Below the pieces are notes generated by a model. It had not been told where the DNA came from. It made no database searches and worked only from the letters and a program-made list of their open reading frames with translations. A DNA stretch of 64,000 nt from Alphaproteobacteria bacterium (GTDB lineage: Bacteria > Pseudomonadota > Alphaproteobacteria > JAAXGF01): positions 2,688,001 to 2,752,000 of the forward strand of contig CAUVXB020000002.1 in assembly GCA_963555825.3 (NCBI GenBank), written 5' to 3'. This document shows, one piece after another, positions 37,105 through 43,279 of this stretch. How positions within the stretch are numbered: the first letter of the stretch is position 1; each line of letters opens with the position of its first letter. The translations under genes and the position numbers were made by a program.

Positions 37105-37145
37105 TTGACTCCTGTTTTGTTTTTGTTCTAGAACAAATAACGAAC
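37105..37145 (+). promoter_or_regulatory. SOS promoter with alphaproteobacterial LexA box
   Basis: TTGACT -35 at 37105; GAAC-N7-GAAC at 37131-37145 and a degenerate GTTT-N7-GTTC at 37114-37128, upstream of imuA. Confidence 0.85.
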
Positions 37146-37175
37146 ACAAGCCAAGCAGGAGAGGACACGCCGCCG

Positions 37176-37922
37176 ATGACCGCGCCCGCCGCCAGCACCG
37201 CTCTCGATGCCTTGCGGGGCCGCGTGCGCGCGCTCGAGCTCGGCGCGCCCGGCGCGGCGGGTGTGATCGAGGCGGTGTCGCTGGGGGTCGCCGCGCTCGA
37301 CGGCGCGCTGCCCTGGGGCGGCCTGCCGCGCGGCGCGTTGCACGAGGTCGCCGGTGGCGGTGTTGTGGGCGGCGATGCCGCGGAGGGCTTCTCGGCCGCC
37401 CTGGCCGCGCGGCTGATCGACGGCCGCGGGCCGGCGCTCTGGTGCCTCGCGCGCGGCGATCTCCACGGCCCCGGCCTCGGCGTCTTCGGGCTCGATCCCG
37501 ACCGGCTGATCGTCGTGCGTGCGCGCAAATCCCACGACGTCCTGTGGGCGATGGAGGAGGGGCTGCGCTCGGGCCGCCCGGGCGCCGTGTTGGGCGAGCC
37601 GCGCGCGCTCGATCTGACCGCCGGGCGCCGGCTGCAGCTCGCCGCGCGCGCCGGCGGCGTCGCCTGCCTGGTGCTGCACGCGGTGCCGAACGAGACGAGC
37701 GTCGCGGTGACCCGTTGGCGCGTCGCCGCCGCGCCGAGCCGGCCGCCGGACGGCCTGCCCGGCCTTGGTGCTGCGCGCTGGCGGGTCGCGTTGGAGCGTT
37801 GCCGCGGCGGTGTGCCGCAGGAGTGGTTGTTGGAGTGGAGCGATGAAGCGCGTCATCTCACTGTGGTTCCCCTACTGGCCGAGCGAACGGCTGGCCCGAC
37901 GGCGGCGCAAGCCGTCGGCTGA
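37176..37922 (+). CDS. imuA: ImuA (RecA-like mutasome accessory protein)
   Basis: LDGALPWGGLPRGALHEV, GLDPDRL, LWAMEEGLRS, RRLQLAA, TRWRV. Confidence 0.93.
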   Translation: MTAPAASTALDALRGRVRALELGAPGAAGVIEAVSLGVAALDGALPWGGLPRGALHEVAGGGVVGGDAAEGFSAALAARLIDGRGPALWCLARGDLHGPGLGVFGLDPDRLIVVRARKSHDVLWAMEEGLRSGRPGAVLGEPRALDLTAGRRLQLAARAGGVACLVLHAVPNETSVAVTRWRVAAAPSRPPDGLPGLGAARWRVALERCRGGVPQEWLLEWSDEARHLTVVPLLAERTAGPTAAQAVG

Positions 37923-39474: not shown

Positions 39475-40112
39475 CGGTAAATCGACCCGTAGGGGCGGGT
39501 TTCAAACCCGCCCCTACGCCAAACAGGGGCGCCACGCGAGTGGGATCGAGTCAAACCCGGAGGCCTCGTCGCCAGCCTTTGCGGCTGCGCGATTACGACT
39601 ACACACGTCCCGGCGCCTATTTCATAACGATCTGTACTCACCGCCGCCGCTGTCTGTTCGGACGGGTTGCAGACGGCGCGATGCACCCGAACGCATTCGG
39701 AGCGATCGTCGGCTCATGCTGGCGCGCGTTGCCGCGACATTATCCCCATGTCGAACTGGACGGCTTCGTGGTCATGCCCAATCACGTCCACGGCATCCTT
39801 CTCCTGACCGATGCCGGTGTCGTCGACCGGCCGAAGGCGAGACGTCATGACCTGTCCGAGGTCGTTCGGGCCTTCAAGACCTTTTCCGCCCAGCGCATCA
39901 ATGAACTTCGCGGTGCCAAGGGAAACCGGCTATGGCAGCGGGGGTTTTACGAACACATCATTCGTCGTGGGGATCCGCTGAACGGGATCCGCAGCTACAT
40001 CGAAACCAACCCGCTGCGCTGGCATCTCGATAGAGAAAATCCGAACCACGTCCGCAAGGGCGGGTTTCAAACCCGCCCCTACACCCGGGACGGCCAGGAG
40101 CAATCGCCGTGA
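39471..40112 (+). CDS. REP-associated tyrosine (Y1 HUH) transposase, RAYT/TnpA-REP
   Basis: LRLRDYDYTRPGAYFITICT, VVMPNHVHGI (HUH), WQRGFYEHIIR, YIETNP (catalytic Tyr); REP at each end. Confidence 0.92.
   Translation: MTVNRPVGAGFKPAPTPNRGATRVGSSQTRRPRRQPLRLRDYDYTRPGAYFITICTHRRRCLFGRVADGAMHPNAFGAIVGSCWRALPRHYPHVELDGFVVMPNHVHGILLLTDAGVVDRPKARRHDLSEVVRAFKTFSAQRINELRGAKGNRLWQRGFYEHIIRRGDPLNGIRSYIETNPLRWHLDRENPNHVRKGGFQTRPYTRDGQEQSP
39489..39517. repeat. GTAG-type REP
   Basis: GTAGGGGCGGGTTTCAAACCCGCCCCTAC, perfect palindrome around a central C. Confidence 0.93.
40054..40082. repeat. GTAG-type REP
   Basis: GCAAGGGCGGGTTTCAAACCCGCCCCTAC. Confidence 0.9.
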
Positions 40113-43100
40113 CCCGCTACGCCGAGCTCCAAGTCACCTCGAACTTCAGCTTCCTGCGCGGCGCGTCGCACCCCGACGAGCTGGCGGTCGCCGCCGCCGC
40201 GCTCGGCCTCGAGGCGCTCGCCATCACCGACCGCAACACGCTGGCCGGCGTGGTGCGCGCCCATATGGCGGCCAAGGCGGCGGGCATCCGCCTCGTCGTC
40301 GGCGCGCGGCTCGATTTCGACGATGGTGCGAGCGTGCTGTGCTTCCCGACCGACCGGGCGGCCTATGGCCGGCTCTCGCGGCTGCTGACGCTCGGCAAGC
40401 GGCGCGCCGCCAAGGGCAAATGCCACCTGACGCGCGACGACCTCCACGACCACGGCGCGGGCCAGATCGTCGTCGCGCTGCCGCCGGCGCGCGCCGACCA
40501 CTCGGCAGCCTCGGACCCGGTCTTCGCGCGGCGCCTCGAGGAACTCCGCTGGCATTTCGGCGATCGCTGTTACCTCGCCGCCCAGCACCTCTACCGGGGC
40601 GACGATGCGCGCCGCATCGCGCGCCTGGCGCGCCTCGCGGACGGCCTGCGCGTGCCCCTGGTGGCGACCGGCGACGTCCGGGCGCATACCGCCGCCCGGC
40701 GCCCGTTGATGGACGTGCTGACTTGCATCCGCGAGGGCTGCACGATCGGAGACGCCGGGCTCCGGCTCGCCGCCAACGCCGAGCGCCACCTGAAATCCGG
40801 CGACGAGATGGCGCGGCTGTTCACCGGCCACCAGGACGCCGTCGCGCGCACGCTCGAGATCGTCGCGCGCTGCGGCTTCTCGCTCGACGAGCTGCGCTAC
40901 GACTACCCCGACGAGGTGGTGCCCGCGGGGCACACGCCGCAGAGTTGGCTGGTCGCGCTCACCGAGGCCGGCGCGCGCGAACGTTATCCAAATGGCGTGC
41001 CGGCCAAGGTGCGCGCCCAGATCGACCACGAGCTCGGGCTCATCGCCGAGCTCGGCTACGCGCCCTATTTCCTGACCGTCGATGACATCGTGCGCTTCGC
41101 CCGCGGCCGCGGCATCCTGTGCCAGGGGCGCGGCTCGGCGGCCAACTCGGCGGTCTGCTATTGCCTGGGGATAACCGCGGTGGACCCCGACCGCATCGAT
41201 CTGTTGTTCGAGCGCTTCGTCAGCGCCGAGCGCGACGAGCCGCCCGACATCGACGTCGATTTCGAGCACGAGCGACGCGAGGAGGTCATCCAGTACATCT
41301 ACGCGAAATACGGCCGCGAACGCGCCGCGCTGGCCGCCACCACGATCACCTACCGCGGGCGCAGCGCGATCCGCGACGTTGGCAAGGCGATGGGGCTGTC
41401 GCTCGATACCGTCGGCGCGCTCGCCGGCACGCTCGCCGGGCGCTATGGCGAGGACGCCTTCTGCGACGAGGACCTCAAGGAACTGGGGCTCGACCCGCGT
41501 GATGCGACGCTCGCCCGCGCGGTGCGTCTGGCGCGCGAGCTCAAGGGCTTTCCCCGGCACCTCTCGCAGCACGTCGGCGGCTTCGTCATCAGCCGGGGGC
41601 CGTTGAGCGAGCTGGTGCCGATCGAGAACGCGGCGATGGAAGACCGCACCGTGATCGAGTGGAACAAGGACGACCTCGACGACCTCGGGCTCTTGAAGAT
41701 CGACGTGCTCGGCCTCGGCATGCTGAGCTGCATCCGCAAGGCCTTCGTTCTGCTCGAGCGCCACCACGGCCGCGCGGTCACGCTCGCCACCGTGCCGGCC
41801 GAGGACCCGGCGACCTACGACATGCTGTGCCGCGCCGATTCGCTCGGCGTCTTCCAGGTCGAGAGCCGCGCCCAGATGAGCATGCTGCCGCGGCTCAAGC
41901 CGCGCTCGTTCTACGACCTGATGATCGAGGTCGCGATCGTCCGGCCGGGGCCGATCCAGGGCAATATGGTGCACCCGTATTTGCGCCGGCGCGGCGGCGA
42001 GGAGCCGGTCGCGTACCCGTCGGCCGCGCTCGAGGGCGTGCTCGCCAAGACGCTCGGCGTGCCGCTGTTCCAGGAACAGGCGATGCGTATCGCGGTGGTC
42101 GCCGCCGGCTTCACGCCGGGCGAGGCCGACGCGCTGCGCCGCGCCATGGCGGCGTGGCGCCGGCCCGGGCTGATCGACGGCTTCAAGGACAAGCTGGTCG
42201 AGGGCATGGTCGCGAACGGCTACGCGCGCGACTTCGCCGAGCGCTGCTTCAGCCAGATCCTCGGCTTCGGCGAGTACGGCTTCCCCGAGAGCCACGCGGC
42301 GAGCTTCGCGCTGCTGGTCTACGTCTCGGCCTGGCTCAAGCGCCACTACCCGGCGGCCTTCGCCTGCGCGCTGCTGAACAGCCAGCCGATGGGCTTTTAC
42401 GCGCCGGCCCAGATCGTCCGCGACGCGCGCGAGCACGGCGTCACCGTGCGGCCCGCCGACGTCAACGCGAGCGATTGGGACTGCACGCTGGAGGCCAATA
42501 ACGACAAGGGCGACGAAGGCGTCGCGCTGCGCCTCGGCCTGCGCCAGATCAAGGGCGCCAGGGAGGCCGACGCCGAAGCGCTGGTGGCAAGCCGCGGCGC
42601 CGGCTACGCAGACGTCCACGACCTCGCCCGGCGCGCGGGCTTGAGCGAGCCGGCGCTGGCGAAACTCGCGCGCGCCGACGCGTTGCGCTCGCTCGGCCTC
42701 GACCGGCGCCAGGCGGCCTGGGCGGTCAAGGGCATCGGGCCGGCGCCGCTGCCGCTGTTTGCCACGACCGACGGCCGCGTGCCCGAACCGGCGATCCGGC
42801 TGCCCGGCATGGGCTTGGGCGAGCAGGTCGCCGAGGACTACGCGACGCTGCGCCTGACGCTGCGTCAACATCCGGTCAGCTTCGTCCGCGACGATCTCGC
42901 CGCCGATGGCTTCGTGCCCGCCAAGGACCTCGCGACCGCCGCCAATGGCCGGCGCGTCGCGGTCGCCGGGCTGGTGACCATCCGCCAGCGCCCGGCGACT
43001 GCGCGCGGCATCATCTTCGTCACGCTCGAGGACGAGACCGGCGTCGCCAACCTGGTGGTCCGCGCCGACGTCTTCGAACGCTTCCGCAAGCCGATGCTCT

Positions 43101-43279
43101 CGGCCGTGCTGCTGGCCGCCCATGGCAAGCTCGAGCGCGAGGGCCTGGTGATCCACGTCGTCGTCGACCGCCTCGCCGACCTGACGCCGCGCCTGCGCGC
43201 GCTGACCGACCCCGCGCCGCCGCCCATCCCGGTGCTCGCCGACCCGGTGCTGCAAGCGCCGTCACGGAACTTCAGGTAG
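40109..43279 (+). CDS. dnaE2: Error-prone DNA polymerase DnaE2 (ImuC)
   Basis: [44 protein letters not shown]-terminal SRNFR. Confidence 0.97.

Follow-up and report, generated by a model that had tools for sequence, protein, structure and literature searches.

The DNA analyzed here is a stretch of 64,000 nucleotides, referred to as the window, from an alphaproteobacterial genome (positions 2,688,001 to 2,752,000 of contig CAUVXB020000002.1, assembly GCA_963555825.3). Its central feature is a mutasome operon with a fourth gene inside. The order on one strand is imuA, imuB, a repetitive extragenic palindrome (REP) hairpin, an intact gene for a REP-associated tyrosine transposase (RAYT), a second REP hairpin, and dnaE2, and the four co-directional open reading frames (ORFs), namely imuA, imuB, the Y1 HUH nuclease gene, and dnaE2, are packed without free space. 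This insert is a REPtron, that is, a single-copy RAYT bracketed by two cognate REPs; another 21 REPs are found in the rest of the genome. The insert is probably a passenger in a permissive operon-internal slot, where the SOS promoter would drive it and where it would be coupled to dnaE2, and is not a demonstrated subunit of the mutasome. The same arrangement, imuB-REP-RAYT-REP-dnaE2 on one strand, is found in five genomes, those of the window (G000) and of the loci L013, L014, L021, and L095.

The identity of the inserted gene is supported by sequence profiles, by catalytic motifs, and by the predicted fold. The protein matches the Pfam family Y1_Tnp (26.8 bits against a cutoff of 23), and its best NCBIfam family is REP_Tyr_transpos (REP-associated tyrosine transposase), with 68.8 bits, under the equivalog cutoff of 80, while the NCBIfam IS200 profile gives 20.2 bits against a cutoff of 55. 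Its HVH and YIETNP motifs align with the HUH and tyrosine motifs of TnpA_REP from Escherichia coli (PDB entry 4ER8), and the residues H82, H84, and Y153 are invariant in an alignment of 52 family members. The AlphaFold model (pLDDT 86.9, pTM 0.78) finds as its top match in the PDB the chain 4ER8_A, TnpA_REP bound to a REP (E 4e-7, TM 0.52/0.60, root-mean-square deviation 3.3, 142 columns), followed by IS200/IS605 transposases at ranks 2-26. There is a single match for the gene in the 6.04-Mb genome.

The hairpins on both sides of the RAYT belong to a small, dispersed population. The REP core has five matches in the window against 0 expected (100 shuffles), and when folded as single-stranded DNA the 5' REP reaches -18.5 kcal/mol (z -7.8) and the 3' REP -11.4 kcal/mol (z -5.2), values equalled by none of 200 shuffles in either case. 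Across the genome, a search with the 29-mer that allowed up to five mismatches returned 23 REPs, with 0-3 mismatches observed, and the reversed control pattern returned 0. All of them are singletons except the pair flanking the RAYT. A stretch of 14.4 kb at this gene contains five of the 23, and the three non-flanking ones fall within 15 kb to either side of it, where 0.10 would be expected (Poisson P 1.7e-4). Two other genomes with the layout, G176 and G350, hold 11 and 13 REPs, respectively. In the window, L014, and L021, the flanking REPs have intact outer GTAG/CTAC ends and degenerate inner ends, as expected of the mirrored REPs that flank a RAYT, and GTAG-footed REPs on both flanks of the RAYT are also found in L014, L021, and L095. 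A passage of PMC6006769 defines the REPtron as a RAYT flanked by REP hairpins with a 5' GT[AG]G at their foot. The GC skew, especially that of contig C2, is too weak to define replichores against which REP orientation could be read.

The same REP is also shared across phyla and abundant in the communities sampled. Under a strict pattern, 14 of 83 loci show its 23-nt core beside a RAYT from another phylum (Chloroflexota, Planctomycetota, Acidobacteriota, and others), and in four metagenome runs the bins covering the two flanking REPs (39449-39570 and 39998-40119) show word depths of 400-19,000, against 4-240 elsewhere. Candidate variants with the RAYT excised were rejected. Their joints, with skips of 538-546, rest on 19-26 REP letters that are separated by foreign letters, their depths do not resemble those of the organism, and they are read as REP pairs of other community members.

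Three surveys define how often the layout recurs: a scan with the RAYT protein of one genome per species, from which 80 loci were kept out of 581 confirmed relatives, a metagenome scan with 80 loci kept, and a class sample of 401 alphaproteobacterial genomes. Among the 80 kept genome loci, three have imuA-imuB upstream (ranks 1, 2, and 9), two of them with dnaE2 downstream as well. These are L013 (equivalent to G176), from an uncultured alphaproteobacterium, where the RAYT is 68% identical and the contig ends inside it; L014, from a metagenome-assembled genome (MAG) of Dongiaceae, with 57% identity; and L021, from an alphaproteobacterial MAG, with about 50%. The metagenome scan contributed one locus with the layout, L101 (rank 1), which is identical in sequence to L095. 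In the class sample, four genomes gave strong RAYT matches (E < 1e-60), namely G000, G176, G350, and G169. G350 (L095) has imuB and dnaE2 on both sides of its RAYT, and G169 (L096) encodes the RAYT elsewhere, with its imuB and dnaE2 adjacent on another contig. Identity of the RAYT across the four other genomes with the layout is 49-68%. G000, G176, and G350 fall in three coded families, L014 is assigned to Dongiaceae, and L021 is labelled only Alphaproteobacteria; most carriers are MAGs. The window stretch itself is found at 0.93-0.99 of its words in 17 runs from five studies, which may include the source sample, and contigs of runs X2, X7, and X8 span the RAYT-dnaE2 junction with 0 differences. 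At the 5' REP the contigs end, and none spans from imuB into the RAYT. As for plasmids, a tblastn search of the RAYT against 72,556 of them gave three distant matches, none linked to imu genes, and imu cassettes are common on plasmids, with at least 500 records matching the N-terminal part of dnaE2.

The place of insertion is occupied by other genes in related genomes. The comparison within the same family covered 12 genomes, in six of which imuB was found, with five readable junctions; no close RAYT homologue was found in the 12 (best match E 2.8e-5). Two of the junctions (L006 and L011) hold a FitA-like antitoxin with a PIN toxin, a third (L010) holds a pentapeptide-repeat protein, and L007 holds a 224-aa membrane-like ORF without family. 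The fifth, L008, is empty, with a direct ATGA overlap. By imuB similarity the nearest relative is G006, whose genome contains 20 REPs of the window type and whose slot is taken by a FitA/PIN pair; a cognate RAYT was looked for in its assembly, which is 88% complete, and not found. Weak Y1 matches in G006, G007, and G040 (E 4e-4 to 8e-3) belong to a different family and do not explain the REPs of G006.

Class-wide pairing gave 116 junctions among the matches listed (150 for imuB and 144 for dnaE2, with 44 further imuB matches outside the list; G350 and G176 are outside this pairing). Among these, the gap between imuB and dnaE2 is up to 60 nt in 69, 61-150 nt in 14, 151-400 nt in 7, 401-1000 nt in 21, and more than 1000 nt in 5. 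Thus, 83 of the 116 junctions among the matches listed are cargo-free at up to 150 nt, and 26 exceed 400 nt, 25 of them besides the window itself. The cargo of these 25 gaps includes PIN toxins (nine loci, with a FitA-like antitoxin confirmed in the five scanned), GIY-YIG proteins (four loci), DUF2019 (two loci), MerR on the opposite strand (two loci), and, at one locus each, a Uma2 protein matching the PADLOC candidate PDC-S03, a Mutator-family transposase of an insertion sequence (IS), the Hachiman pair HamA/HamB, and an 803-aa membrane-like ORF; three loci have ORFs without family and one has no ORF. The imuB/dnaE2 junctions of other genomes compared here are L188-L212 and L006-L011. The unknown cargos of L195 and L204 were tried as degenerate Y1 proteins and discarded, given hhalign probabilities of 0.3% and 0.2% against the RAYT profile. 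Judged by these comparisons of sequence, the imuB/dnaE2 junction of Alphaproteobacteria serves generally as a slot in which small genes of a selfish or defence type turn over quickly.

Two further junctions carry what look like remains. In L227 (G297:C21:36775-36975), a 139-nt gap without a RAYT contains a pair of REP-like hairpins, and the genome has no RAYT match either; the gap is a possible scar of a lost REPtron. Similarly, the 289-nt gap of L186 (G333:C4:1959-2368) contains remnants that resemble a FitA/PIN pair by eye (RIAAMTPKG, LIVDA), which suggests decay of the cargo in place.

The operon is preceded by a LexA box 31 nt before imuA. The motif GAAC-N7-GAAC, which we take to be the consensus bound by LexA in Alphaproteobacteria, occurs twice in the window and 85 times in the whole genome of 6.04 Mb, and a predicted box lies upstream of imuA in all eight loci examined (the window, L013, L014, L021, L101, L006, L007, and L009). 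A TTGAC hexamer precedes the box at a similar distance in L013, L014, L101, L006, L007, and L009, and not in L021. Within 36900-40400, a scan with a simple sigma-70 consensus found no promoter-like site on either strand and no terminator-like site on the plus strand, and no full promoter around the candidate TTGACT hexamer of the operon; a run of T residues follows neither of the flanking REPs. The embedding in the operon, the conserved LexA box, the lack of an internal promoter or terminator pattern, and the overlap of the RAYT stop with the dnaE2 start make SOS-driven co-transcription of the RAYT with the operon the likeliest state, as far as expression can be predicted from the DNA. In L007 (3890-3930), a second GAAC-N7-GAAC site (GAACAAATAAAGAAC) lies between the 224-aa cargo ORF and dnaE2, and the polymerase may there have regained LexA control of its own.

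At the downstream border, the RAYT stop overlaps the dnaE2 start in all four complete loci, in the form GTGA in the window, ATGA in L095, and TGATG in L014 and L021. Part of this overlap comes free, since most dnaE2 genes begin with ATGAC, which has a built-in TGA. The tails of the RAYT proteins run through the 3' REP in different frames and differ accordingly (GGFQTRPY against GAGLRPAPT and AGFKPAPT); their dissimilarity indicates that the REP is kept as DNA and the frame is kept open as such, and not as a peptide. Upstream, four of five loci keep an open frame that begins with a start codon on or close to the stop of imuB. In L013, a stop codon in frame separates the 5' REP from the RAYT, which there has its own ATG. 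The features on which the sequence-only reading (an earlier account made from the letters alone) had built were found again by direct reading: an intact RAYT with HVH and YIETNP between imuB and dnaE2, the LexA box before imuA, the ATGA at 39471-39474 and GTGA at 40109-40112, and a frame open through both REPs, with GGFQTRPY in the translation across one of them.

The start of the RAYT proposed in that reading is another matter. There is indeed an ATG at 39471 with an open frame (213 aa from there, in a frame open over 39357-40112), but the imuB/dnaE2 junction reads TTCGCATGACC in the cargo-free L008, where this ATG starts dnaE2, and TTTGCATGACG in the window. Given this match, the ATG at 39471 looks like an orphaned ancestral start of dnaE2 and not like an adaptation of the RAYT, and it may still bring ribosomes into the reading frame of the RAYT. 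Conservation among orthologues starts at RRxPLRL, about 10 residues past the GTG at 39540, which is the start best supported by the comparison and gives a protein of 190 aa; it lies 22 nt after the 5' REP.

The histories of the cassette and of its insert were compared with two quick trees. In the dnaE2 tree (67 rows, first ~520 residues, IQ-TREE), the window falls within its family (SH-aLRT 95) with G350 nearby, and L014 and L021 are placed elsewhere in the same half. The RAYT label requires four changes for four rows, two of them forced by starred branches, the toxin-antitoxin label requires eight changes for ten rows, and several sister cassettes carry different cargo. In the RAYT tree (82 rows of short proteins, quick search), constraining the five imu-linked RAYTs to be monophyletic gave a log-likelihood 46 units better than that of the free quick tree (p-AU 0.89), and the imu-link label needs three changes, with one of 500 shuffles as good. 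A single lineage may account for the slot-linked RAYTs, whereas their host cassettes form no single clade. Both a single old gain followed by many losses or replacements and a movement of the insert between cassettes via the conserved imuB and dnaE2 flanks fit this pattern.

All five slot RAYTs are intact, and outside the slot decayed family copies are common, with in-frame stops in the best match at 16 of 156 other family loci. These decaying copies hold one to five in-frame stops (L020, L029, L032, L039, L042, L047, L080, L090, L106, L124, L130, L139, L149, L158, L160, and L171). The ratio of nonsynonymous to synonymous divergence (dN/dS), a check that the sequence-only reading had called for, is roughly 0.17 for the slot RAYTs, as estimated from the least diverged pairs, dS being saturated in five of the ten. 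The G+C content at third codon positions (GC3) of the RAYT is 0.70 in the window, against 0.91 for imuB and 0.94 for dnaE2, and lies 17-32 points under that of the flanking imu genes in all five loci, a contrast which indicates that the compositional history of the RAYT differs from that of its operon. The GC3 of imuA, imuB, and dnaE2 (0.88-0.94) also makes the imu cassette a GC-rich outlier with respect to the median of long ORFs in the genome (0.74; genome GC 65.3%).

Relatives of the window RAYT come from Chloroflexota, Cyanobacteriota, Nitrospirota, and others, and members of the family are also placed inside other operons. Of the 161 loci of this wider family, 158 could be scored, and in 35 of these (the imu-linked L014, L021, and L101 included) a downstream ORF of the same direction starts on or right next to the RAYT stop codon. 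A Pfam scan of 39 downstream and 87 upstream neighbours, which gives minimum counts since eight of the shorter downstream ORFs were outside it and many loci are short, placed a type I restriction-modification (R-M) gene (HsdR, HsdS, or HsdM) next to the RAYT in at least 19 of 157 non-imu loci, and in three (L127, L132, and L169) the RAYT lies between hsdS and hsdR. The other neighbours include DNA methylases, Eco57I, McrB-N, BrxC, Abi_C, and Cas7, and most are ordinary metabolic genes. The R-M-linked loci belong to other phyla (L016-L019, L060, L061, L068, L088, L089, L113, L114, L118, L125, L127, L131, L132, L138, L155, L169, and L180), and the RAYT stop often overlaps the next start in them.

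In the mechanism proposed for the window, cleavage of LexA would open the promoter and one mRNA would span imuA, imuB, the RAYT, and dnaE2; the RAYT is most likely transcribed with the operon since no promoter or terminator of its own is visible. Ribosomes would read through the 3' REP, melt its hairpin, and re-initiate on dnaE2. This hand-over would keep the polymerase expressed, and the need for reading through would let only inserts with an open tail persist. The known activity of RAYTs is to bind REP hairpins in single-stranded DNA and cleave them, by which the REPs are maintained or spread. By analogy, the enzyme of the window would then meet and cut REP hairpins on DNA exposed as single strands by damage, and SOS timing would have it present when its substrate is abundant and silent otherwise. 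One RAYT lineage would have settled in the imuB/dnaE2 slot, as relatives did inside type I R-M operons.

Other explanations share part of this evidence. The RAYT could be a working accessory of the mutasome which, once induced by the SOS response, nicks REPs on single-stranded DNA for ImuA-ImuB-DnaE2 to extend, resulting in mutagenesis focused on REPs or in their copying. Co-orientation and the stop/start overlap with dnaE2 at every complete locus, five intact copies with a low dN/dS, the possible single lineage of the slot RAYTs, and the clustering of REPs beside the locus would all agree with such a role, which is nevertheless quite unlikely: most junctions listed have no cargo, relatives of the same family have unrelated cargo or none, sister cassettes differ in what they carry, the RAYT family also resides in unrelated operons, R-M operons among them, and the TGA built into ATGAC supplies some overlaps for free. 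Nothing found speaks directly for a RAYT built into the mutasome or for a nick-and-mutate system: the same gap of close relatives has unrelated cargo and turns over fast, and the REP-encoded peptides are not conserved. Of the interpretations given in the sequence-only reading, that of a selfish element timed to single-stranded DNA fits best. The RAYT might instead be an independent gene, read from the GTG at 39540 by a weak promoter of its own regardless of the SOS response, with the overlaps as by-products of insertion into a tight junction. The onset of conservation past this GTG, the stop upstream of the RAYT in L013, and the ancestral nature of the ATG at 39471 lean this way, but the explanation appears unlikely considering that no promoter-like site was found in the scan on either strand, that just 22 nt separate the 5' REP from the GTG, and that dnaE2 still requires transcription across the insert, so that read-through must occur in any case.

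A defence role, in which the RAYT/REP pair would act against invading DNA from operon-internal hotspots such as hsdS/hsdR and imuB/dnaE2, is quite doubtful as well. The R-M-linked loci, the neighbours BrxC, McrB-N, Abi_C, Eco57I, and Cas7, the Hachiman and Uma2 genes housed in the imu slot, and a bait-like role of REPIN-RAYT systems suggested in a passage of a preprint (10.1101/2024.07.17.603846) speak in its favor; the RAYT has no PADLOC match, however, most neighbours of the family are metabolic, and co-location in hotspots is equally seen for selfish genes. Finally, a recent accidental insertion private to this strain and of no wider meaning is extremely unlikely. The sequence-only reading had named confinement to one strain, with close relatives lacking the arrangement, as what would speak against it, and relatives of the same family do lack a close RAYT homologue. 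Confinement to the strain is contradicted by the four further alphaproteobacterial genomes with the layout, whose RAYTs have diverged considerably, and the stretch recurs in runs of several studies. Some points weigh against the preferred account of a REPtron passenger in a permissive slot. SOS induction and read-through are themselves inferred, the promoter scan covered only the sigma-70 consensus and thus leaves room for an internal promoter, and the RAYT tree has little resolution (8 starred branches among the 79 inner ones). Moreover, five genomes from at least four families with a co-oriented, intact, and dnaE2-coupled RAYT represent an excess of order that a selected function would fit too, and many of the slot cargos are nucleases (PIN, GIY-YIG, Uma2, HUH, and HamA) that could share a common functional logic.

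The three imu genes were called as follows. ImuA scores 67.8 bits (E 1.1e-18) in the NCBIfam family ImuA_translesion (NF033429), below the cutoff of 150, has no Pfam family, and is 40-69% identical to the first gene, upstream of imuB, in related cassettes. ImuB matches the Pfam families IMS, IMS_C, and DUF6504, all above cutoff, and DnaE2 scores 1479 bits in the NCBIfam family for error-prone DNA polymerase (NF004225; cutoff 939), with the Pfam domains PHP, DNA_pol3_alpha, finger, and HHH_6. The spacing between imuB and dnaE2 is 634 nt including the fourth gene, so that the three imu genes are not contiguous. Further away, cobN and cobW lie upstream and genes for methylmalonyl-CoA mutase, pyruvate carboxylase, and MeaB downstream, and the wider region is flanked by an IS110-family transposase gene (33845-34957) and a DDE_3/IS630-like one (55375-56382).

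Table 1. Features of the RAYT-bearing imu operon and the nearby REP copies (window coordinates).
Feature	Position	Strand	Evidence
Candidate -35 hexamer TTGACT of a putative operon promoter	37105..37110	+	Read by eye; inference
LexA box, alphaproteobacterial type, GAACAAATAACGAAC (GAAC-N7-GAAC)	37131..37145	+	Pattern search
imuA	37176..37922	+	NCBIfam ImuA_translesion, position
imuB, inactive Y-family polymerase homologue; start overlaps imuA end	37843..39474	+	Pfam IMS, IMS_C, DUF6504
ATGA, with ATG in the RAYT frame over the imuB stop	39471..39474	+	Direct reading
5' REP hairpin GTAGGGGCGGGTTTCAAACCCGCCCCTAC, 29-nt palindrome	39489..39517	+	Pattern search, single-stranded DNA folding
RAYT (TnpA_REP-like Y1 HUH nuclease)	39540..40112	+	Pfam Y1_Tnp, fold, motifs
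3' REP hairpin GCAAGGGCGGGTTTCAAACCCGCCCCTAC, within the 3' tail of the RAYT ORF	40054..40082	+	Pattern search, folding
dnaE2 (imuC), GTG start overlapping the RAYT stop (GTGA 40109-40112)	40109..43279	+	NCBIfam, Pfam
REP copy, intergenic, directly after the methylmalonyl-CoA mutase gene	45503..45531		Pattern search
REP copy, intergenic, beside the end of the pyruvate carboxylase gene	50132..50160		Pattern search
REP copy, intergenic, between the pyruvate carboxylase and meaB genes	53817..53845		Pattern search

The sequence-only reading knew of no description of such an arrangement, and the literature searches agree, as no description of a RAYT inside an imu operon was found in print. Searches returned nothing that links RAYTs with imu genes, with SOS or LexA control, or with type I R-M loci; the only paper among those found in which RAYT and imuB both occur is a tuberculosis network study. 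Two surveys of ImuB/DnaE2 modules (PMC6511836 and PMC12926913) do not use the words "transposase" or "toxin" in their main text, nor does the latter use "GIY-YIG", and the passages retrieved from two RAYT surveys (PMC5581495 and PMC6006769) do not refer to imu, SOS, or R-M contexts.

The function and timing of RAYTs have been an open question since their first description, and REP duplication is, according to a passage of the preprint 10.1101/2024.07.17.603846, far too rare to watch. A RAYT behind a LexA-controlled promoter would offer a natural inducible case, for which it can be predicted that DNA damage switches on the cutting of REPs. The recurrent landing place at imuB/dnaE2, used by toxin-antitoxin pairs, GIY-YIG, Uma2, Hachiman, and RAYT genes, together with the matching slot in type I R-M operons, points to operon-internal "safe havens" in which selfish or defence genes would be silent until stress. 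This bears on the annotation of SOS mutagenesis operons and on the hunt for new defence or addiction modules. If a role in the mutasome were true, REPs would be programmed foci of mutagenesis or of REP copying, and it would account for hairpin repeats and small nuclease genes gathering in and around imu operons in several phyla.

Among the closest known systems is the REPtron of E. coli, whose enzyme (4ER8) is the best match of the window RAYT both by sequence profile and by fold. As in the window, it combines one Y1 HUH nuclease gene per genome, whose protein has the HUH motif and a YxxxNP tyrosine, with its own GTAG-footed REPs and further dispersed REPs. Unlike it, the window RAYT is only 23% identical over the fold alignment and scores below the REP_Tyr_transpos cutoff, its genome has just 23 REPs that are singletons apart from the flanking pair, and the gene is placed inside a polymerase operon with a LexA box, its stop on the start of the next gene. 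A passage of PMC6006769 describes E. coli strains in which the REPtron is replaced by a toxin-antitoxin operon, which resembles the situation of G000 with respect to its relatives G006 and G007.

Passages of Bertels, Gallie and Rainey 2017 (PMC5581495) describe a Group 4 of RAYTs that is seldom found in Proteobacteria, frequent in Cyanobacteria, Chlorobia, and Caldilineae, and associated with flanking 16-mers of low copy number (14 occurrences). Judging by those descriptions alone, the window RAYT would belong to this group, with its relatives in Chloroflexota, Cyanobacteriota, and Nitrospirota and 11-23 REPs per genome; the passages name no imu or R-M context.

With the imuA-imuB-dnaE2 cassette known from Caulobacter and from the mycobacterial mutasome, the window shares the gene order, the ImuB and DnaE2 families, and the upstream LexA box, and differs in the unrelated fourth gene and the two hairpin repeats between imuB and dnaE2. 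The IS200/IS605 elements ISDra2 and IS608 similarly have the Y1 HUH fold, subterminal hairpins, and an action on single-stranded DNA, and the transposition of ISDra2, which is stimulated by irradiation, provides a model for an activity timed to single-stranded DNA. Unlike them, the window RAYT is single copy, has no tnpB, and has hairpins dispersed without the gene, and is therefore not an IS. The dinB-yafN-yafO-yafP operon of E. coli is a LexA-controlled translesion polymerase operon that carries a selfish toxin-antitoxin module. Its polymerase system and its cargo are different, and the cargo lies downstream of the polymerase gene and not between mutasome genes. Of the known cases it comes closest to a passenger carried by an SOS polymerase operon, and also to the FitA/PIN pairs of the slot.

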